DNA from: Candidatus Saccharimonadota bacterium
Lineage (GTDB): Bacteria > Patescibacteriota > Saccharimonadia > Saccharimonadales > Saccharimonadaceae
Direction: 5' to 3'
Length of the DNA stretch: 32,000 nucleotides
Assembly: GCA_016700015.1 (NCBI GenBank)
Contig: CP064995.1
Location: 780,001-812,000 of the forward strand
Shown: positions 1 through 10,580 of the stretch, piece after piece
Layout: every line of letters begins with the position of its first letter
Numbering within the stretch: the first letter of the stretch is position 1
Position numbers and translations under genes: made by a program
Notes under the pieces: generated by a model
What the model saw: only the letters and a program-made list of their open reading frames with translations
What the model was told of the DNA's origin: nothing
Databases searched by the model: none

Positions 1-2010
1 GCAGCGAAACTTGTTAAGGCTAGTGTTGTAGTACATGGCCCCGTTGAAACCACCTGGGTCAGTTGCTTGATTGTATGAATCGAGTACGAAGAGTGCGGCA
101 TTACTATCGGTTCCGGGTAGTCCTATCTGCACCGTAAAGTTAGTCGTGTCAGCCGTAAATAAATTTACTCCAGCGGCATTGTTGATCTGCACGGCCGTTG
201 TTGAATTGGTCGCATTCTGCAAATTCACTCGTCCACCTACACCGAAGTCACCATTAAACTGCACACTTTGCCCAACTGTCAGTGCACCGCTTATCTGGGC
301 TGCCGACCCAACACTCAGCCCGCCATTAATGATCGCGTCGCCCACCAACTGCGTGTTGCCATTAACAGACAACGTACCGAGCTCTGCCCCTCCGGCCTCG
401 AGTTGCTGAACGTAGGCACCACCGACGTCATAGGTTGTAAGTGTATTGGACGTGTAATTAATGACGTAGGCGTAGCGGCCAACAACGCTCACAGCGATTG
501 GCAAGTTACCGGTTCCAACAGTTCCAACACTAGCAGGAGCGGTCGGCGTCGATACATCATAAATACCGAGGGTGTTACCGGTTCCGTTTGTGACGTATAC
601 GTAGCGGCCTTGCACACTGAGAGACTGGGGTGAAGACCCAGTCGCAACTGAGCCGACGCTGGTTGGCGAAGCAGGATTCTTCACGTCAATCACATTGAGT
701 GCGCTACCGCCATTGTCAATAATATAGGCATAGCGACCCTGAACCGAAACTGCTTTTATATTCGTCCCGATTACTAGTGAGCCTATTACGCTCAGGCTGG
801 CGGGGTTACTAATATTCACAATGTTTAGTGTTGAGTTAGTATTATCAACAATATAGGCATACACACCCTGAATATAGACTGACTGCAATGCGCCTGCACC
901 GATACTAAGCGAACCTGCAACGATTGGTGCGGACGGATTACCGACATCGACAATGGTAAATGTGCCGCTGTTACTACCGACGTAGGCGTAGCGACCTTGC
1001 ACATACACCGAATATGCGCCAGCGACTGATGCTGACCCCATACTCGTTGGGCTTGCTGGGTTACTAACGTCATATATGCTTAATGTGTTACCAACTGCAC
1101 TTGTCACGTAGGCGTAGCGACCTTGCACCGCCACGAAATAGGCGTTAGTACTCGAGATGGTGCCAACACTGACTGGGCTTGCTGGGTTACTTACATCAAA
1201 GACTTTAAGGGCACCAGACGTCGAGTTTGTAGTATAAGCATAACGGCCTTGCACAGCGACTGATCGGGTCGCCGTACCCACGGCCACTGAACCAAGTGAA
1301 GCAGTTGGTAGTCTGCCGCTGACATAGAGTTGGCCAGTACTTGTGCCAAGCGTGCCAACCATGAGCCGATTTGCAGTCGTGTCAACCCTCATAACCGTCG
1401 TTGAGCCAGCTGCATTTTGAACCTGAAAAGCTGTTGCGCTATCAACCTTGATTAAGTTGGTAGACGTCCAGGTGTTACTTGCCCCTACCTGCGCAAAAGC
1501 ACTCGAATCCAACCCATCCAGTAGGTCGGAGTTGAAGCTGTAGGCGCTGGAGGCTAGTTTGTTTCTGGGGGTCATAGGTCCTTCAGTGTAGGATTCACAA
1601 GATGCACCAGTACAGGTAGCTGTAGCGGGGGTTGGGAGCTCTATCTCAAAGTACAGGGTAGCAGTGTCGGTGGTACTAAAGATATTAGCAGGCAGACTCG
1701 ATACATCACCGAGCTGGACACTGAACAGACCGCCAGTGGTGACAGTAACACCAGTACTAGCGCTATTGGCACGTTGCTCACTCCACTTTAGGGTTCCCCC
1801 ACTACTGGCATCATAGATACGGAATTTCATGTTGTAGGTACCAGCAGCCATAGGGTTACCAGAAGCATCGGTCAGGCGGCCTTGGAAGTTTAGCTTGTAG
1901 GGGATGGTGGTGAGGGCGTGAATATTATTAGATACGCAAAACAGCGCTACAAATCCGGAGATAAATGGTAGCGCGAACAATAACAACAACGATTTTTTAG
2001 TCGTGTTTAT
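1..2010 (-). CDS. Large secreted adhesin-like protein, paralogue A. The 3' end runs off the window. Contains a signal peptide, a conserved head module, seven LVIVD-like beta-propeller repeats and a MYYN..KFRC module. Start codon uncertain.
   Basis: The minus-strand frame is open from nt 2025 to nt 1. It has no stop in the window, so it is absent from the ORF track. My translation reads ..KKSLLLLFALPFISGFVALFCVSNNIHA/LTTIPYKLNFQGRLTDASGNPMAAGTYNMKFRIYD.., continues through seven ..VQGRYAYV.. repeats, and ends ..DPGGFNGAMYYNTSLNKFRC at nt 1. There is no ATG or GTG at the 5' end. ATA at 2010..2008 aligns with the TTG start of the paralogue; the first in-frame TTG is at 1989. Confidence 0.8.
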   Translation of the reverse strand, partial: MNTTKKSLLLLFALPFISGFVALFCVSNNIHALTTIPYKLNFQGRLTDASGNPMAAGTYNMKFRIYDASSGGTLKWSEQRANSASTGVTVTTGGLFSVQLGDVSSLPANIFSTTDTATLYFEIELPTPATATCTGASCESYTEGPMTPRNKLASSAYSFNSDLLDGLDSSAFAQVGASNTWTSTNLIKVDSATAFQVQNAAGSTTVMRVDTTANRLMVGTLGTSTGQLYVSGRLPTASLGSVAVGTATRSVAVQGRYAYTTNSTSGALKVFDVSNPASPVSVGTISSTNAYFVAVQGRYAYVTSAVGNTLSIYDVSNPASPTSMGSASVAGAYSVYVQGRYAYVGSNSGTFTIVDVGNPSAPIVAGSLSIGAGALQSVYIQGVYAYIVDNTNSTLNIVNISNPASLSVIGSLVIGTNIKAVSVQGRYAYIIDNGGSALNVIDVKNPASPTSVGSVATGSSPQSLSVQGRYVYVTNGTGNTLGIYDVSTPTAPASVGTVGTGNLPIAVSVVGRYAYVINYTSNTLTTYDVGGAYVQQLEAGGAELGTLSVNGNTQLVGDAIINGGLSVGSAAQISGALTVGQSVQFNGDFGVGGRVNLQNATNSTTAVQINNAAGVNLFTADTTNFTVQIGLPGTDSNAALFVLDSYNQATDPGGFNGAMYYNTSLNKFRC
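410..1300 (-). repeat. Seven tandem in-frame repeats of about 129 bp (43 codons), LVIVD-like, inside paralogue A
   Basis: The DNA motif gta(g/t)gc(g/a)ta(g/a)cg(a/g)cc(t/c)tgcac recurs near 472, 603, 733, 862, 990, 1115 and 1245. It encodes V-Q-G-R-Y-A-Y-V followed by ..L.(I/V).DVSNPasP..vG. Confidence 0.8.
1471..1920 (-). repeat. Copy 1 of a roughly 450-bp direct repeat (head-module coding sequence shared by the two adhesin paralogues)
   Basis: Hand alignment with 4080..4526 shows about 93 % identity over 1507..1920 versus 4113..4526, with one 3-nt indel near the distal end. Confidence 0.9.
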
Positions 2011-2081
2011 TATTTTTCTTCCCGTTTATTATTTATTTTCTCCACACCACTCATAGGTAATGAGAGTATGGCTCATAATAA

Positions 2082-2110
2082 GTTATACTGGTTGTGTTTA
2101 CAAATGTCAA
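2082..2110 (-). promoter_or_regulatory. Sigma70-type promoter upstream of paralogue A
   Basis: On the minus strand: TTGACA (2110..2105), a 17-nt spacer, then TATAAC (2087..2082). Confidence 0.5.
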
Positions 2111-2160
2111 ACAATCCAAGTGATGCCAGTACGCTAATCTGAGCGCAAAGGCTACTGCAG

Positions 2161-2652
2161 CTACTGTTTAGCCTTGAGCGCTTGGCTTATTTTGCTGTCA
2201 TCGCGGAGGTTCTGCCAAAACACTACTTGACTCGACTTTATGGCCATGGTGTCTTCTGGGCCGTATAGTTGGTCGCGAACACGCAAAAGCGTTGTAGTTT
2301 GCTCTGTATCTTTGTTACTCGCCTGCTGTGCAGGTGTTTGTGCGGTATACGGACTACTGACAACCAGGTATTCACCACGAGTATTCTGTAGTTTACCAAA
2401 GTATGCTTGTCCGTTTGTCAGATAGATCACTTGATACTTTGAGGGATCAATTGGTGTATCGCGACCATTCAGAGCATATAGCACTATCGCAAAAGTCAAG
2501 ATACCAGCAAGCATCACTGCACCCATTAGCGATAGTGAAGACGTTATTCGGGGTGTGCCTCGTCGCAACACAAACCGCTTGCGAGGTACAGCAACCGGGC
2601 GGCTCTCATCTTTTAGCGCTTCATCAGACTTTGACTTCACTTCTACCTTCAT
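2161..2652 (-). CDS. Small membrane-anchored protein (single N-terminal TM helix), function unknown
   Basis: 163-aa ORF with a basic N-terminus, the TM helix LSLMGAVMLAGILTFAIVLYAL and a soluble C-terminal domain. A TATACT box lies 6 nt upstream of the ATG. No family recognised. Confidence 0.7.
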   Translation of the reverse strand: MKVEVKSKSDEALKDESRPVAVPRKRFVLRRGTPRITSSLSLMGAVMLAGILTFAIVLYALNGRDTPIDPSKYQVIYLTNGQAYFGKLQNTRGEYLVVSSPYTAQTPAQQASNKDTEQTTTLLRVRDQLYGPEDTMAIKSSQVVFWQNLRDDSKISQALKAKQ

Positions 2653-2658
2653 ACCACT

Positions 2659-2664
2659 AGTATA
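2659..2664 (-). promoter_or_regulatory. -10 box (TATACT) 6 nt upstream of ATG 2652; putative leaderless promoter
   Basis: Minus strand reads ggTATACTagtggtATG, with TTCACA 18 nt further upstream. Confidence 0.45.
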
Positions 2665-2670
2665 CCTGAC

Positions 2671-3063
2671 TTACCGTGCGGTTGTGAATTCCATCTCGGC
2701 TTGCAAGTAGTCGATGTCGACTGTCCGAGCCGTCGTACCGACCGATTTGAGTATTTGTGAACCAAAACCAAGCGCTCGAGCAGTACCGGTCGGGATATTG
2801 GCCGTATGAGTCGCCACTAGTGTGCCATTGATATAGAACCCGACACTGGTACCAGCTGCATTGACAATGATGCCAAGTTTAACCCATGTACCTGCACCGA
2901 CTGCCGTGGTGGTGGTGGTCCACGTCCGAGTGCTGTTCGAAGACGTGACGACTTGCCAGTTTGCGCTCGCCGTCGAACCAGTCGATACACCACCTTCATC
3001 ATAGACAAAACTGACAGCATCGACTTGGTTAGCCGTGGTCGAATCATAGAAGCCGACTACCAT
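2671..3063 (-). CDS. LamG/ConA-like jelly-roll domain. Most likely the frameshifted C-terminal part of ORF 3057..4622 rather than an independent gene.
   Basis: 130-aa ORF with ..TWVKLGIIVNAAGTSVGFYINGTLVATH..IDYLQAE... Its frame stays open upstream of the ATG. It joins the 3057..4622 frame if one G is added to the G5 run at 3127..3131. Confidence 0.6.
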   Translation of the reverse strand: MVVGFYDSTTANQVDAVSFVYDEGGVSTGSTASANWQVVTSSNSTRTWTTTTTAVGAGTWVKLGIIVNAAGTSVGFYINGTLVATHTANIPTGTARALGFGSQILKSVGTTARTVDIDYLQAEMEFTTAR

Positions 3064-4622
3064 GCTATAGCGATTCGTCGCACCAGAAAGTGTCGTGACG
3101 TTGACGGCTGTTTCGTACAGTGTGAGCCCCCACCTAATGCTAATGCATTTGTTGTCGAGCCGAATGCCGCTCGTCCGGTCGTCGTCGTACCAGTCGTCGA
3201 ACGAAATGTACCAGGGCGGTTTGTGGCAATGGTTGCGTTACTCGTCGCTGTGGCAGCACCGGTGCCAGTCGAGCTGGCGAAAACATCACCCGTTGTCGTA
3301 AATGACCCCAGCAGGTCATTGGCATAGCGATAACCCGATGTAGAGTCAGTATTGCCGATACAATTACGCCATATGCCAGCTTCATAGCAGCGAAAGGCAT
3401 CTTTCGCGGTGCTATAGTACATCGAACCAGCAACCCCAGTCGGGTCGGATGCCGACGAGGCGTTGCTGAGTACAAGGGTAATTGGGTTGGTTGTTACCGA
3501 TGAGCCGCCGATATATATCCGCGCGCTTGTACTATCAGCGACAAATAGCTTTGTGCTGGCGGCAGTTTGTAGCGTGAAAGCCGTTGCCGACGCCGATGGC
3601 ACAGTAAATTGCGCTGCACCAGTGCTGCTAACATCAAAGAGCGCTGTACCGAGCCCACCGGCATTACTCCCCCGCACGGCAAATAACGTACCAGCAATGG
3701 TGGTATCGGCATCTTGAATATCGAACCCGGCCCGTGTGGCATCAGCCTTGATCTCCGGTGTTGTGCCACCAGTCGAGGCGGTGTAGGCCGTCTGCAGCGT
3801 CGCGCCGCCAGCAGCCGTAATACAATCCGTCCATGCGCCCTGGTAGCAACGAAACTTACCCGACGTTGAGTTGTAGTACATCGCACCGTTGGTCGATGTC
3901 GCACCCGCTCCAGGATCTGCAGTGTTAGTATCGAGCACCAGCACCTGACTAGTGCTATCTGCAGTGCCTATCTTGACCAGCGCATTTGCGGTATCAGCTG
4001 TCAGTACATTGGTACCACTTGCGCCAACAGTAAATGCCATGCTGCTCGACAGGTTCACGCCAAGTGTACCGGTAAAGCTGGTGTTACTCCCTACCTGTGC
4101 AAACGCCGCACTATCCAACCCATCCAATAGGTCACTGTTAAAGCTGTAGGCGCTGGAGGCGAGTTTGTTTCTGGGGGTCATGGGGCCTTCGGTGTAGGAT
4201 TCACAAGATGCACCAGTACAGGTAGCGGTAGCGGGGGTTGGGAGTTCGATCTCAAAGTACAGGGTAGCAGTGTCGGTGGTACTGAAGATGTTAGCTGGCA
4301 AGCTCGATACATCACCAAGTTGGACACTGAACAAGCCGCCAGTGGTGACGGTGACACCAGTGCTAGCGCTGTTGGCACGTTGTTCACTCCACTTTAGGGT
4401 TCCCCCACTACTGGCATCATAGATACGGAATTTCATGTTGTAGGTACCAGCAGCCATAGGATTACCAGAAGCATCAGTCAGGCGGCCTTGGAAGTTTAGC
4501 TTATAGGGGATGGTGGTGAGGGCGTGGACAGAGGCCGGGAACGCAAAATTGACCAGGAATGCCATGATTGCTGGTACAGCGAAGAATAACACCGCTTGAA
4601 TTTGTCTTTTAGTGAACCTCAA
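3057..4622 (-). CDS. Large secreted adhesin-like protein, paralogue B (probably truncated by a frameshift)
   Basis: 521-aa ORF with a TTG start and GGAG 7 nt upstream. Signal peptide ..FPASVHA/LTT. The head module is protein-identical to paralogue A. It carries two G.MYY..FRCY..W..C modules. The last roughly 22 aa (SHCTKQPSTSRHFLVRRIAIAW) look like out-of-frame read-through. Confidence 0.8.
   Translation of the reverse strand: MRFTKRQIQAVLFFAVPAIMAFLVNFAFPASVHALTTIPYKLNFQGRLTDASGNPMAAGTYNMKFRIYDASSGGTLKWSEQRANSASTGVTVTTGGLFSVQLGDVSSLPANIFSTTDTATLYFEIELPTPATATCTGASCESYTEGPMTPRNKLASSAYSFNSDLLDGLDSAAFAQVGSNTSFTGTLGVNLSSSMAFTVGASGTNVLTADTANALVKIGTADSTSQVLVLDTNTADPGAGATSTNGAMYYNSTSGKFRCYQGAWTDCITAAGGATLQTAYTASTGGTTPEIKADATRAGFDIQDADTTIAGTLFAVRGSNAGGLGTALFDVSSTGAAQFTVPSASATAFTLQTAASTKLFVADSTSARIYIGGSSVTTNPITLVLSNASSASDPTGVAGSMYYSTAKDAFRCYEAGIWRNCIGNTDSTSGYRYANDLLGSFTTTGDVFASSTGTGAATATSNATIATNRPGTFRSTTGTTTTGRAAFGSTTNALALGGGSHCTKQPSTSRHFLVRRIAIAW
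4080..4526 (-). repeat. Copy 2 of the roughly 450-bp direct repeat (head-module coding sequence)
   Basis: See the feature at 1471..1920. Confidence 0.9.
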
Positions 4623-4672
4623 TTACTAGCTCCGTTTAATGCGGCTAAGGTATAGTATACTGCTTATGACAA

Positions 4673-5560
4673 CTATTTGACAAGGATTCGAGTAACTTTT
4701 TTGTGAGTACGATACCTATGTTTTTTTCGTCGGTTATATACATAGAGCGCTATCACAATCAATGCAACGGCGATAATCGGCATGAGCCAGCGCCAGTAGC
4801 CAGTTATGGCAAAGACTACTCGTGATTTGCTGTCACCCCCAGTCGAGGCTTCAATTAGTACAAATCCGAAGTAATTACCCGGCTGTCGGTAGTCAATGGT
4901 ACGGGTCCGGCCACTAAAGACAAGTGGGCCCTTTGCCGTAGTGGTACCATAGGGCTTCATGTCAATTTTGATCTTAGGGAAGAAACCGGTGGACAGGTTG
5001 GGATCGGCCGTATTGGTAACTGCTAGCTGGGCCTGCACTACCTCACCAATCTGCAAAAATGGTGCCGAAATTTCACTAATCGTCGCATAGTGTTGAGAGG
5101 GAGTTCCGTTTTGGATCATAAGCAGTGTACCCACTCGCACTGATTGCATCGCACTCAATGAACCGATGGGTGTTGTCGACGCAAAAATCACTGCAAATAC
5201 ATCTCCCCCAGGCAACTTTTTACTATCGATTGCAAATGCCAGCCGCAGCGTCTCGCGCGGGCCAATCTGCGCTTCAGTGTAGTCAAGTCGTATACCCGCT
5301 GCAATTTGTTCGCTTGGGTAAAACTGCAGCGACCCGTCATCATCAATCTGACGAAATGCCTGGACCTCAAATCGAACCGTTTGCGCAGTGCTATCGCTGT
5401 TTGAAATATCCACGAACCCCTTTTTGGTTTCGCCTTTTGCGAGCGTAGTTTCGTAACTGAGTGGTGCGGTGCGCAGCGACAGTGCCGATGCGTGCGCACC
5501 AATTGCTACAGAAACTGTCAATGCGCACACTACACCCCAGGCTAGATGCAATACTCTCAC
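4673..5560 (-). CDS. Cell-surface protein: signal peptide, beta-rich ectodomain, C-terminal TM anchor with a basic tail (CscA/DUF916-like layout)
   Basis: 295-aa ORF. Its GTG start overlaps the upstream stop (GTGA at 5557..5560). Signal peptide ..AIGAHASA/LS, C-terminal helix WLMPIIAVALIVIALYVY, then NRRKKHRYRTHKK. Homology to DUF916/DUF3324 is unverified. Confidence 0.7.
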   Translation of the reverse strand: MRVLHLAWGVVCALTVSVAIGAHASALSLRTAPLSYETTLAKGETKKGFVDISNSDSTAQTVRFEVQAFRQIDDDGSLQFYPSEQIAAGIRLDYTEAQIGPRETLRLAFAIDSKKLPGGDVFAVIFASTTPIGSLSAMQSVRVGTLLMIQNGTPSQHYATISEISAPFLQIGEVVQAQLAVTNTADPNLSTGFFPKIKIDMKPYGTTTAKGPLVFSGRTRTIDYRQPGNYFGFVLIEASTGGDSKSRVVFAITGYWRWLMPIIAVALIVIALYVYNRRKKHRYRTHKKVTRILVK

Positions 5561-6936
5561 GGGGTCATCGTTCCTGTAGTGGTAATCACATTGGTATATG
5601 TGCCAGTAGGCTGACTCAAACTGACATCAAGCCGAAGCCGCATATTAAGCACGTCTTTAGATGAGGGCTGGCCAGTACGTGTATAGAATGTGGTGCTCGT
5701 TCCTGGAAACGCGGCATAGGCCGCGCCACTACTCCATTTACCCGGTATCGCTGTTGCGTTGGTACCATACAGCGTAAAGCCGAGTCCTTTTGTCGTCCCC
5801 TCTACCCACGTCACAGGGCTCGCTATCGTGCCCGACACTGCATTAATAGTATCGGCACCTTTAGTGAGGTCATTATTCTGATTAACAGCCAACGTATAGC
5901 CATTAATCGAATCAGTTAGCACCACCGCATCGTAATTGCTTGTCTGCGAAATACCAGGCACGATGCCAGATGCAAACCCTAGTCCGGCGGTATTCCCAGC
6001 CACACCCGCGTCATATTCAGCTTTTACCTCGCTTGGTGTAAATGAGCGATTAAACATTTTCACTTCGTCAAGCGAACCATTAAAATACCTACCGAGGCCA
6101 CGCATCGCACCAATCGTCAGATACGATGAGCTGTCCTGTAATGAACTTGGTATCGTCCCTAAACAGACAGACATTGGGCGAACAACACCGTCAATATATA
6201 CCTTTGCTCGATCGAGTGCAGTGCTCTGCGTCCCATCATAGACAAGCGCAACATGATGCCATGAACCAGCCGACCAGGCTCCGTCTGTGTCGACACAGTT
6301 TCCGCCTGTATCGCCCTGACTGCTCGCGATAAAAACGCGCAGGACACTTGCACTTGTCCCGGTCTGCAGCGCCCATGAACTACTTACTGCTTGATTCCAA
6401 TGTGCAATGAGCGCTTTGTCCGTCGAGGCGGATGCCTGATTTGCCCAGAGTGAAACCGTCATGTTCTGGCTAAACGTAAGGTTGGCGCTGTCAGGCACCT
6501 GCACATACGAACTGGCATTGGCGCTAACGCCGTTTCCTACTTTGCCGGTCACCCATGTTGCACCAACCTGAAGATCAGCATTATTCGTGTTTATGCTGCT
6601 ATCTCTCGTGAACGTACCTGAGTTTTCTTCTAGTGGATAGTAGGCTTTCAGACCACCCGGCTGCACTGTCAGTTGCAGACTGTTCTTCAACTGCGCCACG
6701 TATCCACCGGCCAACATGTAGCTACCGCCTGCGCCATTACCAACAATACTTTCTCCACCGCTACCCGTCAGCTTATAGCTTGTTGAACTCTCGCTGCCAC
6801 CGAAATTATTGGCAACACTAGCATCGATCACGTAACTTGTCGATGTAAAGCGATAGGCGGCAATAGTATCAACAAAGCATCCTGCCAACACCAGCACAAA
6901 TGCCGTCATCATCCCCTTGGTATACATACCTCTCAT
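5557..6936 (-). CDS. Secreted LamG (Laminin_G_3 / concanavalin A-like lectin) domain protein with a C-terminal WxL-like domain
   Basis: 459-aa ORF. The block LKAYYPLEENSGTFTRDSS..TVSLWANQ..WHHVALVYDG..KVYIDGV..LTIGA..YFNGSLDEVKMFNRSFTPSEV fits the LamG signature. The C-terminal roughly 125 aa resemble the 202-aa protein at 8679..9287. Confidence 0.8.
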   Translation of the reverse strand: MRGMYTKGMMTAFVLVLAGCFVDTIAAYRFTSTSYVIDASVANNFGGSESSTSYKLTGSGGESIVGNGAGGSYMLAGGYVAQLKNSLQLTVQPGGLKAYYPLEENSGTFTRDSSINTNNADLQVGATWVTGKVGNGVSANASSYVQVPDSANLTFSQNMTVSLWANQASASTDKALIAHWNQAVSSSWALQTGTSASVLRVFIASSQGDTGGNCVDTDGAWSAGSWHHVALVYDGTQSTALDRAKVYIDGVVRPMSVCLGTIPSSLQDSSSYLTIGAMRGLGRYFNGSLDEVKMFNRSFTPSEVKAEYDAGVAGNTAGLGFASGIVPGISQTSNYDAVVLTDSINGYTLAVNQNNDLTKGADTINAVSGTIASPVTWVEGTTKGLGFTLYGTNATAIPGKWSSGAAYAAFPGTSTTFYTRTGQPSSKDVLNMRLRLDVSLSQPTGTYTNVITTTGTMTP

Positions 6937-6963
6937 GCTATGTTTAGTATAGCAAACTGTAAT

Positions 6964-7797
6964 CTATAGCGCCAAAAACGCAATTCCAAGCAATACGATA
7001 CCCAGGCCTCTCAGGAAAAAGAGTGTGTGGTGACGGACAAGTAACGGCAGTGCATGAATATTCCACTTTAAAACTTGGTAGCGGATCCAATGATATGCGA
7101 TGAACATCGAATGCGACAGCACAAGCAGCGCAGTACCGCCAACTATCAGCCAAAAACGTAGTAGCATTTTGCCAACAGCTTCAGCATTCGAAGAGGGTGT
7201 TGCAATATCGAGTAGTATCATCCCCTTATGGACTAGTGTGCTCAAATTGTTAACAGGCTTGGTGGTGGCCGCCTGGTCGATTTGCTGGTTTAAATACGAG
7301 CTGGTATCGATGACTCCCTGGCGAGCATCGCGGATCACATTTGGAACAGTTGAAGGTGTGCCGTTACTCGGCTGAGCAGATGGGTTATATACGATGGACA
7401 CTAGGTCGGGCACGGAATTACTCGTAAATGGATCTAGACCCTGTACGGTAATGTCGTGGTTGCCTATTGGTACGGCCACACTTAATGTAACTTGTGATGA
7501 GCCAATATCGACTGCAACTGTATGGCTATATACCCCATCAATGTAAATCATTACTTGGCCGATGTTATGGACTTGTATCGTAACATCTACTGGTGATGAA
7601 TTGAATACTGTACCCGGTACTGGTGCGACAATATTCAAGACAGCAGGCTGACCATCATAGACGGTTGTGCTAATTTCAGTCTCCATCGCTCGCACCGGAA
7701 GTGATGTAATACAGCATAGCACACCAGTAACAGCTAGGCTGAGGGCGAGTTTAAATACGCCTACGAGGCGTGTGTTTACGCTTGTCGCGCAAAACAT
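6964..7797 (-). CDS. Membrane protein with an N-terminal signal peptide, an Ig-like beta domain and two C-terminal TM helices
   Basis: 277-aa ORF with ..SLPVRA/METE.., the beta-sandwich-like stretch PAVLNIVAPVPGTVFNSSPVDVTIQVHNIGQVMIYIDGVYSHTVAV and hydrophobic C-terminal segments. It overlaps the upstream gene by 47 nt. Confidence 0.65.
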   Translation of the reverse strand: MFCATSVNTRLVGVFKLALSLAVTGVLCCITSLPVRAMETEISTTVYDGQPAVLNIVAPVPGTVFNSSPVDVTIQVHNIGQVMIYIDGVYSHTVAVDIGSSQVTLSVAVPIGNHDITVQGLDPFTSNSVPDLVSIVYNPSAQPSNGTPSTVPNVIRDARQGVIDTSSYLNQQIDQAATTKPVNNLSTLVHKGMILLDIATPSSNAEAVGKMLLRFWLIVGGTALLVLSHSMFIAYHWIRYQVLKWNIHALPLLVRHHTLFFLRGLGIVLLGIAFLAL

Positions 7798-8668
7798 TTG
7801 CTCCCCCTACTAGTACAAGTACTCCTACCACAAGTAGCAGCCATCGTGGCACAACAAGCACTATAGACTCTGTAGTCTTGTTCTCATTCAATAGTTGACT
7901 CTGGACAGAGACTCTAAATAATCCGATCCAGGGAGAGTTGTCCCAAGCCAACTCTGTACGTCGCGTAGTACTAGGGAGAATAATATTTTCGCTGCTTGTA
8001 CTGAATTTTTCCTGTCCAAACAGGTCTTTTACGGTCATACGCGATACTGCATTAAAGTCTGTTTTACCTGTATTCTCAACGACAGTTTCACTTTTTATAG
8101 GGGCGGCGGGCTGGAAGAAATCGAGCAGCAGGCTTTTTACCTTCCCCACTGTTTGTGTCTCACCTTTTACATTTGTATATAGTATCAGCCCAAGTCTTTT
8201 CTTGCGCGCAACTCCCATCTCATCTCCGTTTGGTAGCACCATTGTCTCAACAAAAATCGTCCCGTAGTGTCCACCCGCTGGGATACCGGCACCAACTCGG
8301 ACAGTAAAGGGCACTGTTACCTTTTGCCCAGCTTCGAGATGCCATTTACTTTGCGGAAATGAAACCCATTTGTAGGCGTCTCCGTTGCCAGTCTGTGTAG
8401 TGAAGTCTTGCTCATATTGTTCACCTTTCACGGAATATGGTGCAGTATAGACGGTAAAATCATATGACGTATCGCCGTCGTTGACGACAATAAATGAGTC
8501 ATTTGTGGTACCTCCTGCTTCAAGCTGTAGCCTTTTGGCTGCCGGAGACAGGGTTATACTATCCCTCTGCTCAGCGGCCGCCACAGTGCCAAAAGGCACC
8601 ACCGTGAGAAACAGGGCTATTGCTAGCCCCGTTCTCAGGCAAGATTGTAGAGTCTTGGCAATATTCAC
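7751..8668 (-). CDS. Cell-surface protein: signal peptide, two beta-rich domains, C-terminal TM anchor with a basic tail (CscA/DUF916-like layout)
   Basis: The ORF track gives 7751..8704. I prefer GTG at 8668, which has AGGAAG 6 nt upstream and does not overlap the stop at 8679. That start gives MNIAKTLQSCLRTGLAIALFLTVVPFGTVAAA/EQ. Other features: ..IPAGGHYGTIFVET.., and the C-terminal helix WLLLVVGVLVLVGGA followed by RDKRKHTPRRRI. Confidence 0.7.
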   Translation of the reverse strand: MNIAKTLQSCLRTGLAIALFLTVVPFGTVAAAEQRDSITLSPAAKRLQLEAGGTTNDSFIVVNDGDTSYDFTVYTAPYSVKGEQYEQDFTTQTGNGDAYKWVSFPQSKWHLEAGQKVTVPFTVRVGAGIPAGGHYGTIFVETMVLPNGDEMGVARKKRLGLILYTNVKGETQTVGKVKSLLLDFFQPAAPIKSETVVENTGKTDFNAVSRMTVKDLFGQEKFSTSSENIILPSTTRRTELAWDNSPWIGLFRVSVQSQLLNENKTTESIVLVVPRWLLLVVGVLVLVGGANVLRDKRKHTPRRRI

Positions 8669-8678
8669 ACAATTCTTC

Positions 8679-9287
8679 CTATTTTGCAGTAGCCGTGTAC
8701 ACAACTACGTCGGAGTACGTACCGGTAGGCTTACTTGAGTCAACTTTCGCAGCATACCATATATCAGTTACTTCGTTTGTTGCAACTGCTGAGGTATCCT
8801 TCAGTGTGAACGGTGAGCCGCTTGCTGGCATACCAGCCCATTTGCTTGTCGCAGATGTTGAGCTCGATTCAGCAGAATATGTTGTGTCAAATGGTGCACC
8901 AGGTGTCGCAAAACCCCATGTATTAACTGCAAGCGTATTAGGAGAGCCCACTGTGTTCGAGGAAGCGGCAATAGTATACGCACCGCTCACTAAGGTAGTA
9001 GTAGCATCAACATCTTGTACAGTTAGTGTATACCCGCTTGTACTATTACAGTTAATCGTGATGGCATCTTTTGCACTCGACTCAACGGCGCTCGCACCAG
9101 GGAGCAAAGAGAAGCTGACTTTGTTTGCTGTGCCTTGGGAAGTTGTTGTCATGCTTATTGTCGAGTTCACAGTTGCTTCTACGGTGACGTTTTGTGTAAT
9201 AGCACTCGCTGTTGGTGCTACGACCAGCCCGACAACAGCAATAACGCCAGCACTGGCGACTAACGCTGATTTTATGGGTTGTTTCAT
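8679..9287 (-). CDS. Small secreted beta-rich protein, WxL-like (first gene of the surface locus)
   Basis: 202-aa ORF with SD AAAGGAAAC upstream. Signal peptide ..VVAPTASA/IT. Motifs SGYTLTV, NTWGF, SKWAG and a C-terminal KPTGTYSDVVVYTATAK are shared with the C-terminus of the LamG protein. Confidence 0.7.
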   Translation of the reverse strand: MKQPIKSALVASAGVIAVVGLVVAPTASAITQNVTVEATVNSTISMTTTSQGTANKVSFSLLPGASAVESSAKDAITINCNSTSGYTLTVQDVDATTTLVSGAYTIAASSNTVGSPNTLAVNTWGFATPGAPFDTTYSAESSSTSATSKWAGMPASGSPFTLKDTSAVATNEVTDIWYAAKVDSSKPTGTYSDVVVYTATAK

Positions 9288-9322
9288 GGTGGTTTGTTTC
9301 CTTTTTGTTAGTATCTGCGGTG

Positions 9323-9352
9323 ATTATCGCATAGCGCTAATGGTAATGTCAA
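9323..9352 (-). promoter_or_regulatory. Sigma70-type promoter of the surface-protein locus
   Basis: On the minus strand: TTGACA (9352..9347), an 18-nt spacer ending in TGc, then GATAAT (9328..9323). An SD-containing leader of about 30 nt follows. Confidence 0.55.
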
Positions 9353-9371
9353 GCCAAGTATTCTACCAATA

Positions 9372-9947
9372 CTATTGTGGATTTTGCAACAATCTTGCAA
9401 GCGCTTGCCTCGTACCGTCGTTGGTTACATGCCAAATACTCTGCATACCGGCTACTTCTGCTCCATCACAGTTTTCTTCGATATCATCAATCATCACACA
9501 TTCGCCAGTCGGTACTGCAAGTCGCTCAGCCATAAGTGTGAAAATGGCCGGATTGGGTTTGAGTAAATGTTCTTGGTACGAAAGCACTACGGCGTCAAAT
9601 AACTCATGTAGCTCGTCACCGAATAGCCGTTCCACCGTCCCGTTACTGACATTGCTCAGTAACCCGATCTTGTACTCACCATCTTTTTTTAGCAAGCGCA
9701 CAAACTCAACCAGCTCCTCATTACGTTGGTGTTTCATACGCAGTATGGTCTCAACGTCTTCGTACGATGCATCAAACAGTTCGGCAATCCCCGCTATATA
9801 GTCATGCGTTTCGATAAACCCATAGTCTGCTTGCTTATTGAGATCACGCAGGTCCTGGAGCCGATCCTCTGGGCACATACCGGTAATAGTGTTCAGGCTC
9901 CCGCCATACAGTACCCCAAAACAATCGAATACGATGCCACGCGTCAT
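9372..9947 (-). CDS. HAD-superfamily hydrolase (subfamily IA-like)
   Basis: Motif I IVFDCFGVL, motif II IGLLSN, motif III KPNPAIF, motif IV MIDDIEEN. The ORF track start is 9974. I prefer ATG 9947 (MTRGIVFD..), which has TATACT 6 nt upstream. Confidence 0.85.
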   Translation of the reverse strand: MTRGIVFDCFGVLYGGSLNTITGMCPEDRLQDLRDLNKQADYGFIETHDYIAGIAELFDASYEDVETILRMKHQRNEELVEFVRLLKKDGEYKIGLLSNVSNGTVERLFGDELHELFDAVVLSYQEHLLKPNPAIFTLMAERLAVPTGECVMIDDIEENCDGAEVAGMQSIWHVTNDGTRQALARLLQNPQ

Positions 9948-9953
9948 GCCTCC

Positions 9954-9959
9954 AGTATA
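9954..9959 (-). promoter_or_regulatory. -10 box (TATACT) 6 nt upstream of ATG 9947
   Basis: Minus strand reads gcgcTATACTggaggcATG. Confidence 0.35.
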
Positions 9960-9974
9960 GCGCGATAACCGCAC

Positions 9975-10580
9975 TTAGTAAATTTCGTCGAACTGTGGCT
10001 TAAAATCTGGGATTTGATTGACAAATAGTGCCTGTACTCGCCCCGAATCAGCGGCCATCGTACCCTTAGAACCGTTACAGGTGGTCGTCCACAGTGTGTG
10101 GTCTGCAGTGCCATCGTTCAATGATTCATATTTAAACGCCAGGCCATGAGTAGCGCAAACACCTCGAAAATCAACGCCTGTTGCACTGCGAGTTTTGGCA
10201 ATATCGGCTTTTTCGAGCGCGTAAACAAACTCTTCGTATGCGCGAGCAGTGTTGCTATAGGTCTTCGTATCTATCACCTGCTCTTCGTAGCCGCTATAGG
10301 TTACAAAGCTACGCTTAGTAGGAGTGATGGTGATAGCGTAGGTCTTAAACTTCTCGTCAGCAACAATCGGCCCGCGCACCGTCCAGCGAACAGCGCGGTT
10401 ATCACCAGTTTCGTGCAGTGCCGTTAGCACCGCTTCAGTTGATTCAACACCCGCCGGGCCCTGTGAGGTGCCGCTTGTGAACACCATGCGACCTACCGAA
10501 ACAATCGCCGCAATCACCAGCGCAATCACAAGAATGATAATGATGATGGGTAGAATACGTGGTCCTGATCCTCGATACAT
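9975..10580 (-). CDS. Membrane-anchored protein with an extracytoplasmic domain, function unknown
   Basis: The ORF track gives a TTG start at 10637. ATG at 10580 gives MYRGSGPRILPIIIIILVIALVIAAIV.., a single TM helix. The ectodomain contains two Cys. No family recognised. Confidence 0.6.
   Translation of the reverse strand: MYRGSGPRILPIIIIILVIALVIAAIVSVGRMVFTSGTSQGPAGVESTEAVLTALHETGDNRAVRWTVRGPIVADEKFKTYAITITPTKRSFVTYSGYEEQVIDTKTYSNTARAYEEFVYALEKADIAKTRSATGVDFRGVCATHGLAFKYESLNDGTADHTLWTTTCNGSKGTMAADSGRVQALFVNQIPDFKPQFDEIY

Follow-up and report, generated by a model that had tools for sequence, protein, structure and literature searches.

A conserved Saccharibacteria gene cluster with WxLIP-like anchors, pilin-type subunits and MAT-like fibres as a candidate adhesion apparatus

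Apart from type IV pili and the recently described Pam pili, little is known of how ultrasmall episymbionts of the Candidate Phyla Radiation (CPR) recognise and hold their bacterial hosts. A stretch of 32,000 nt from Candidatus Saccharimonadota (CP064995.1, positions 780,001-812,000; in the following called the window) raises this question, as its positions 1..9352 harbour, on the minus strand, a cluster of genes for secreted or membrane-anchored proteins, which we number P1 to P9 in the direction of reading. A preliminary description of this DNA had seen here a remote, tryptophan-poor analogue of the WxL/Csc surface-protein clusters, fused to giant adhesins. Is the locus indeed such a cluster, is it a pilus operon of the Pam type, or does it represent something else? 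Our analysis demonstrates neither a WxL cluster nor a pam operon. We consider it probable, at roughly 60%, that it represents one conserved Saccharibacteria operon, whose products form an adhesion apparatus that is anchored in the envelope and works by strand complementation. Its function would most plausibly be a usher-less, chaperone/pilin-type surface adhesion with anchors of the WxLIP family (DUF916/DUF3324) and with MAT-type fibres. Present in at least 73 species-level genomes of Saccharibacteria, the operon would be a second, differently built candidate for host holding.

Gene order and promoter in related genomes

A profile scan of the GTDB species genomes yielded 73 species-level loci, almost all of which are labelled Saccharibacteria or Saccharimonadales. 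Adjacent genes were counted by profile searches of the open reading frames (ORFs) of these loci, and the denominators given are the loci with enough sequence. P1 is followed by P2 in 70 of 73 loci, P2 by P3 in 51 of 64 and P4 by P5 in 38 of 53, and the genes upstream of the operon are syntenic in relatives too. The preliminary description had made its reading depend on a gene order shared with related genomes, and this order is kept among the Saccharibacteria loci.

In the window the genes follow each other at intervals of 10, -47, 27, -4, 50, 404 and 171 nt, in order down the operon. The two overlaps, 47 nt at 7751-7797 and a GTGA at 5557-5560, had been noticed before and were confirmed. An N-terminal hydrophobic segment is found in all products, as expected from the earlier statement that each protein carries a signal peptide or a membrane anchor, and the gene coordinates, basic tails, topologies and promoter position described at that time all proved correct on re-analysis.

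The sigma-70-type promoter at the start of the operon (9323..9352, minus strand) consists of TTGACA and GATAAT separated by 18 nt, with a TG upstream of the -10 element. Read from 9352 to 9323 it matches 11 of 12 positions, which makes it the best among 19 promoter-like sites in positions 1..10000. Because shuffled sequence yields 12.7±3.7 such sites, the motif by itself is weak evidence. However, in 47 of 65 related loci a TTGAC[AGT]-17/18-nAnAAT site with at most two mismatches precedes the first P1 gene by 33-50 nt, and due to this conservation we regard it as a real promoter position. This strong promoter would drive the whole operon, so that P1 to P9 would be transcribed together. Further promoter-like sites within the locus are located at 4683 and 2688.

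Membrane anchors and pilin-type subunits

P2 (7751..8668, minus strand) comprises 305 aa if read from the GTG start called in the near-identical contig L001; its ORF reaches 8704. The protein has a signal peptide, two Ig-like domains, one C-terminal transmembrane (TM) helix and a basic tail, KRKHTPRRRI. P5 (4673..5560, minus strand; 295 aa) also has a signal peptide and two Ig-like domains, is likewise anchored by one C-terminal TM helix and ends in the basic tail RRKKHRYR. Direct Pfam and NCBIfam scans of the window proteins gave no match to WxL, DUF916 or DUF3324 at E<=1; the homology of P2 and P5 to WxLIP emerged with family profiles and not with single-sequence scans. A profile from 45 P2 homologues matches 11,050 cluster representatives at E<=1e-3, and proteins named Candidatus Saccharimonas are included among the P2 homologues. 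Weak matches to PF06030 (WxLIP_PGBD) occur in 27 of 65 diverse P2-family members, more than to any other family, and among the proteins matched in a second profile search three bear PF06030 as a precomputed annotation; one of these reaches E=2.7e-45 against the P2 profile.

As a WxLIP reference we used an alignment of six annotated proteins with DUF916 (PGBD) and DUF3324 (HBD) from Firmicute plasmids. By hhalign the P2 family matches this reference with 97.6% (E=4e-12) over 207 columns, covering both domains, and the P5 family with 91.3% (E=9e-7). The P5 and P2 families match each other with 99.8% (E=1e-27), and a direct BLASTP comparison of the proteins P2 and P5 yields E=7e-4; judged by their sequences, the two proteins are paralogues. 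The AlphaFold2 (AF2) model of P2 (predicted local distance difference test, pLDDT, 90.9) consists of two beta-sandwich domains, with a helix at the C-terminus. In a Foldseek search with this model the WxLIP of E. faecium (9i1y/9i25) is on top (E=2e-12). CfaA and CsuC, both pilus chaperones, rank next and RbmA after them, whereby CfaA, CsuC, DraB and CupB2 are matched with E=1e-7 to 1e-10. A PDB profile search with the P2 family gave EfmWxLIP1 as the best match (E=0.0016). A likeness to the DUF916/DUF3324 protein had been suggested by the preliminary description, and it is borne out by the profile comparisons and by the top fold match. P2 and P5 are therefore supported as remote homologues of WxLIP, with a fold like that of PapD-like chaperones. 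With this the WxLIP family, which had been regarded as a trait of Firmicutes, reaches into the CPR and is at the same time tied structurally to pilus chaperones.

In the same fold search the best matches thus bring the solved WxLIP together with CfaA, CsuC, DraB and CupB2, which are pilus chaperones of the classical, alternative and archaic kinds. These model-based matches hint that the Firmicute WxLIP itself may be a membrane-anchored relative of the PapD-like chaperones, a kinship that is not stated in the WxL or Pam papers cited below.

P1 (8679..9287, minus strand; 202 aa) is a secreted small subunit with a signal peptide and an Ig-like pilin-type domain. It is 100% identical to IPM09_04335, a protein annotated as coming from a Candidatus Saccharibacteria bacterium. 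The signal peptide shows A-x-A at residues 27-29. Right after this site, residues 30-48 follow a conserved alternating pattern, I/V-x-A/S-x-I/V-x-S-x-I-x-V, an amphipathic strand which might represent a pilin-like N-terminal donor strand. The AF2 model of P1 (pLDDT 88) finds as its top PDB fold matches subunits that are assembled by donor strands, namely CfaB (E=4.5e-3, probability 1.0), CsuE, CsuA/B, TasA, FimA/F/G and Caf1.

The P1 domain reappears at the C-terminus of P4 (5557..6936, minus strand; 459 aa), where about 135 residues (5560..5964, minus strand; aa ~325-459) match the P1 family by hhalign with 97.2% (E=3.4e-11, 130 columns, 30% identity). Therefore the logic of a small plus a large protein, which had been read into the locus before, is real. 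The remainder of P4 includes an N-terminal module (aa 26-100), which is confined to the P4 family, and a LamG or concanavalin-A-like lectin domain (6022..6516, minus strand; aa 141-305; Pfam PF13385). This lectin fold, too, had been recognised earlier and is confirmed by a match to Laminin_G_3 (E=1e-25); in the PDB, its profile matches carbohydrate-binding domains of the LamG type and pentraxin domains. Most P4 relatives possess the LamG domain, and the N-terminal module and the C-terminal pilin-type domain are kept while the middle varies. In variants of 239-319 aa (L017, L023, L025, L082) LamG is absent, and variants of 658-731 aa (L030, L045, L050, L054) have about 200 extra, unassigned residues. 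By analogy, a swappable middle combined with a pilin-type C-terminus would correspond to the layout of two-domain tip adhesins. Two other candidate features of P4 were rejected: a lipobox-like LAGC in the signal peptide is not kept in the family consensus, and a match to TafC, a haloarchaeal Tat-fimbria protein, involves the LamG domain alone and reaches 36 bits compared to a cut-off of 410.

Comparing these proteins with known pili, the archaic and alternative chaperone-usher pili (Csu of Acinetobacter, CFA/I of enterotoxigenic Escherichia coli, ETEC) share several traits with the locus. The P1 model has its best fold matches in CfaB, CsuE and CsuA/B, and the P2 model, after WxLIP, in CfaA and CsuC; a weak SCPU-like motif (SCPU being the Csu pilin family in Pfam) is found at the C-terminus in 11 of 55 P1-family members; and the lectin-plus-pilin arrangement of P4 is that of a tip adhesin. 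The differences are that the chaperone-like protein is membrane-anchored here and that the likeness is one of fold, below the family thresholds. No usher-like protein was found among the nine products in the Pfam and NCBIfam scans. To our knowledge Saccharibacteria have no outer membrane, and because of this the assembly proposed below does without an usher.

If P2 and P5 are related to WxLIP, do P1 and P4 carry a WxL domain? By the published definition, a WxL cluster comprises one WxLIP together with two WxL proteins (PMC10599100). The locus could be a true but highly diverged WxL/Csc cluster, in which the tryptophan has been replaced by tyrosine in P1 and P4 and in which these proteins, like their counterparts in Enterococcus and Lactobacillus, form non-polymerising 1:1 complexes on the WxLIP proteins (P2, P5) and the cell wall. 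Indeed, the similarity to this system of Lactobacillales and Listeria (PMC10599100, PMC9772566; 9i1y, 9i25) includes the homology of P2 and P5 over both Ig-like domains with the TM helix and the basic tail, a small and a large protein with a common C-terminal domain, which fits the published cluster definition, and a tight clustering of genes whose products are all secreted or anchored. Moreover, greedy hhalign places the conserved G-Y-x-L of P1 on G-W-x-L of WxL and its C-terminal Y-x-x-x-h-x-Y on Y-x-x-x-L-T-W, collinear across 146 columns.

However, this greedy alignment has E=0.21 and a probability of 0.3%, and the standard comparisons reach 5-7%. Taken together, the domain shared by P1 and P4 scores 0.3-7% against our WxL alignments (eight small WxL proteins; thirteen WxL domains), which is no statistical match. 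The Pfam WxL profile (PF13731) matches neither the window proteins nor any of the 55 P1-family members. The solved WxL chain 9i25_A is contained in the PDB sequence copy, but the 50 best fold matches of P1 do not include it, while pilins do occur among them. The dual Trp-x-Leu motif of WxL is lacking in the shared domain, with Tyr at the corresponding conserved positions. In spite of the motif likeness seen by eye, we have therefore rejected P1 as a WxL domain, and the view of P1 and P4 as tryptophan-poor WxL proteins does not hold, the best folds being donor-strand pilins.

The composition of the locus differs as well. There are two WxLIP paralogues, and both an additional Ig-like, polytopic membrane protein (P3) and the MAT-type fibres located downstream are without a Csc counterpart; the organism, furthermore, is a CPR bacterium and not a Firmicute. 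CscD, a small LPXTG-anchored protein, is part of most but not all Csc clusters. No LPXTG- or CscD-like gene is found among the nine listed products, of which P8 is N-terminally anchored, although no motif search was made for it. Altogether a diverged WxL/Csc cluster appears unlikely, and we prefer the strand-complementation operon outlined above.

Besides its signal peptide, the polytopic protein P3 (6964..7797, minus strand; 277 aa) contains a single Ig-like domain of the bacterial type and, according to hydropathy, two hydrophobic segments at its C-terminus besides the N-terminal one. Glucodextran_B is matched by 39 of 48 members of the P3 family (best E=8.7e-8), and matches to Big_7 and Big_13 occur too.

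The fibre genes

The preliminary description had assigned two giant adhesin paralogues, separated by a small anchored protein, to the downstream end of the locus. Both the paralogues and the small protein are present, but the first adhesin is split by a 1-nt indel into P6 (3057-4622, minus strand; 521 aa), the N-terminal part, and P7 (2671-3063, minus strand; 130 aa), the C-terminal part. P7 matches Pfam SO2946-like_C (E=4e-30) beginning only at profile position 52, which suggests that the start of the domain is encoded in another frame. Contig L001 is 99.994% identical over 16.5 kb and differs in a single base, having G6 where the window has G5 (3127..3131, minus strand), and it carries an uninterrupted P6/P7 ORF. 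Therefore P6 and P7 are one gene (2671..4622, minus strand) for a MAT-like fibre of about 650 aa with a signal peptide. The G5 run could stem from an error in sequencing the homopolymer, or it could be a switch that turns the adhesin on and off by strand slippage.

Within the joined gene the MAT-type N-terminal domain is located at ~4278-4529 and the SO2946-like, concanavalin-type tip at 2710-3063. P9 (1..2025, minus strand) represents the 5' part of the second MAT-like fibre gene; it runs off the window and encodes at least 675 aa, with a MAT-type N-terminal domain at ~1687-1926 and an LVIVD beta-propeller region at ~391-1260. The LVIVD profile, which had been named as worth searching for, is matched by P9 with E=2e-41. 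For Bdello_MAT_N, P6 gives E=1e-5 when the full ORF is searched and 6.8e-8 with its N-terminal fragment, P9 gives E=2e-6, and among the fibre N-termini of relatives 39 of 40 match this NCBIfam family (best E=3.8e-12). The adhesins are separate MAT-like fibre genes and not, as had been proposed, fused to the surface-protein cluster.

The mature N-terminal ~145 residues of P6 and P9 are identical, while their DNA is about 90% identical and shows 30 synonymous codon changes. An identical protein in spite of these changes indicates purifying selection instead of gene conversion, and a recent gene conversion of the fibre N-termini was rejected for this reason. At the level of sequence this points to a very strong purifying selection on the presumed docking domain of the fibres. 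Past the shared N-terminus the two proteins diverge, P6/P7 towards the concanavalin-type tip and P9 towards the LVIVD propeller. The N-terminal stretches compared are 4100-4550 and 1471-1920 of the window. With regard to the start of P9, no ATG or GTG is found near the 5' end of the ORF, and a start at the first TTG (1989) would leave the signal peptide without its charged n-region. However, ATA ATA follows 4 nt after a GGGAAG motif, which suggests a non-canonical ATA start (1989-2025).

P8 (2161..2652, minus strand; 163 aa) is a bitopic protein with a TM segment at aa 36-64 as judged by hydropathy. It has no family match in the Pfam and NCBIfam scans and lies beside fibre genes in 26 related loci.

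MAT (mosaic adhesive trimer) fibres of Bdellovibrio bacteriovorus recognise prey surfaces via variable tips, and their N-terminal domain is invariant and was proposed to bind an unidentified element of the cell surface (PMC10769870). The fibres described here share the pattern of an invariant N-terminus combined with an exchange of C-terminal tips, lectin-type folds included (PMC10769870; NF053851), and both organisms live attached to other bacteria. In contrast to Bdellovibrio, the tips are of the SO2946-like and LVIVD propeller type, the bearer is a monoderm-like CPR bacterium, and a chaperone/pilin-like module is encoded alongside. The locus thereby places fibres of the Bdellovibrio type beside what may be their anchoring machinery.

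Proposed assembly and alternative explanations

Based on these similarities, the following course of assembly can be proposed. After Sec export, P2 and P5 would bind to P1 and P4, whose incomplete Ig fold they would stabilise with an inserted beta strand. Solved complexes of WxLIP with WxL and of chaperones with pilins show such an insertion. The subunits P1 and P4 would then either be kept at the membrane or be passed on by donor-strand exchange, and polymerisation would lead to a short P1 fibre with the P4 lectin at its tip. P4 would thus display its LamG lectin between the private N-terminal module and the pilin-type domain, and P3 might serve as an accessory or anchoring factor. P6/P7 and P9 would form trimeric, MAT-like fibres, which have a common N-terminal docking domain and different tips and which might recognise host surfaces.

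A comparable assembly is described for Ca. Mycosynbacter amalyticus, whose Pam pili consist of Ig-like pilins joined by donor-strand exchange. The filaments have been solved, and the pam operon encodes two membrane-anchored PapD-like chaperones (PamC, PamD), an RbmA-like anchored protein and a single-domain tip pilin (PamT), with a tail-fibre-like gene nearby (bioRxiv 10.64898/2026.03.03.709456). WxL or DUF916 are not mentioned in this preprint. Could our locus simply be the orthologue of the pam operon and therefore already be described? Both belong to the class Saccharimonadia and follow a usher-less logic, with Ig-like subunits exported by Sec and two PapD-like chaperones that a C-terminal TM helix anchors in the membrane. 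Both loci also have a single-domain subunit (PamT in the pam operon), a co-localised tail-fibre-like gene and a proposed role in host contact. By analogy, and as far as the descriptions go, the Pam pilus is the closest functional precedent.

Nevertheless, order and content of the two operons differ. The pam genes are arranged PamC-B-R-D-E-A-T, as inferred from their accession numbers, compared to P1-P2-P3-P4-P5-fibre here. PamA (WP_260763287), PamB (WP_260763280) and PamE have a nine-strand N-terminal domain, a linker strand and several disulfides; in place of such two-domain pilins the locus has a LamG-bearing subunit, P4, with three cysteines, and P1 has only one. The pam neighbourhood includes ATP synthase genes, none of which were found in the annotated parts of the window or downstream in relatives. 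Instead the locus is bounded by HAD and DNA polymerase I genes in the window and by hydrolase, Fpg and holA genes in relatives. Finally, no Mycosynbacter protein is named among the homologues of P1 or P2, most of these matches being nameless. We therefore regard orthology to the pam operon as rather improbable. A Southlakia transposon sequencing (Tn-seq) paper contains no mappable mention of the cluster either.

Several points nevertheless weigh against a single adhesion operon of the strand-complementation type. The fibre genes follow P5 in just 31 of 47 loci, and the link between the two modules may therefore be mere neighbourhood. All Bdello_MAT_N scores lie below the curated cut-off of NCBI (60 bits). 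The structural matches of P1 are weak, with E from 4.5e-3 upward and template-modelling (TM) scores of 0.37-0.54, and the SCPU scores amount to 15-17 bits, compared to a cut-off of 22.4, and span just the C-terminal 40 aa. The relation to the Pam pili is one of described features.

In addition to the common gene order a variant operon was found, which has divergent P1/P2 pairs and P3 but no P4 or P5; its order is P2, P1 (this gene on the other strand), P1, P2, P3 (L029, L039, L046, L058, L063, L070, L081, L084). In L029 it is followed by a protein with phage-tail repeats and Phage_tail_C and by a Gly_rich_2 protein. A distant metagenome contig of 3.8 kb from the Joint Genome Institute (JGI), L087, encodes two tandem P2-like proteins, one of which is annotated as PF06030, followed by a small membrane protein with a helix-turn-helix-like N-terminus and a MAT-like fibre. 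This gene set suggests that the association of chaperone-like proteins with fibres extends past close relatives.

That the locus merely combines two adjacent, independent functions, i.e. an envelope or cell-wall-binding module (P1-P5) unrelated to the host and a separate adhesin or prophage-derived cassette (the fibres), is suggested by the lack of fibres after P5 in about a third of the informative loci, the 404-nt and 171-nt gaps around P8, the internal promoter-like sites and the different phage-tail-like genes in the variant loci, but seems very improbable, as a tail-fibre-like gene accompanies chaperone/pilin modules in three arrangements (this operon, the L029 type and pam) and in L087, and as the lectin domain of P4 argues for ligand binding over a purely structural role.

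For a single operon of the strand-complementation type, one may go a step further and ask how its two modules could be connected. P1 to P5 might form the docking and assembly platform of the MAT-type fibres, i.e. the element postulated for the Bdellovibrio fibres; WxL clusters, Pam pili and archaic chaperone-usher pili would then be branches of one ancient strand-complementation family, in which a membrane-anchored chaperone replaces the usher in monoderm-type cells. This extension is speculative and, in our estimation, doubtful. If true, hosts would be recognised by a lectin-tipped short pilus and by swappable, predator-style fibres, both expressed from one operon. The locus itself makes two questions testable, namely which partner the MAT N-terminal domain binds and whether donor-strand complementation occurs in WxL clusters.

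As to the surroundings of the locus, the GC content of the window is about 50%, and the housekeeping genes in its annotated remainder include those for sigma-70, DNA polymerase I, primase, ArgRS and CTP synthase.

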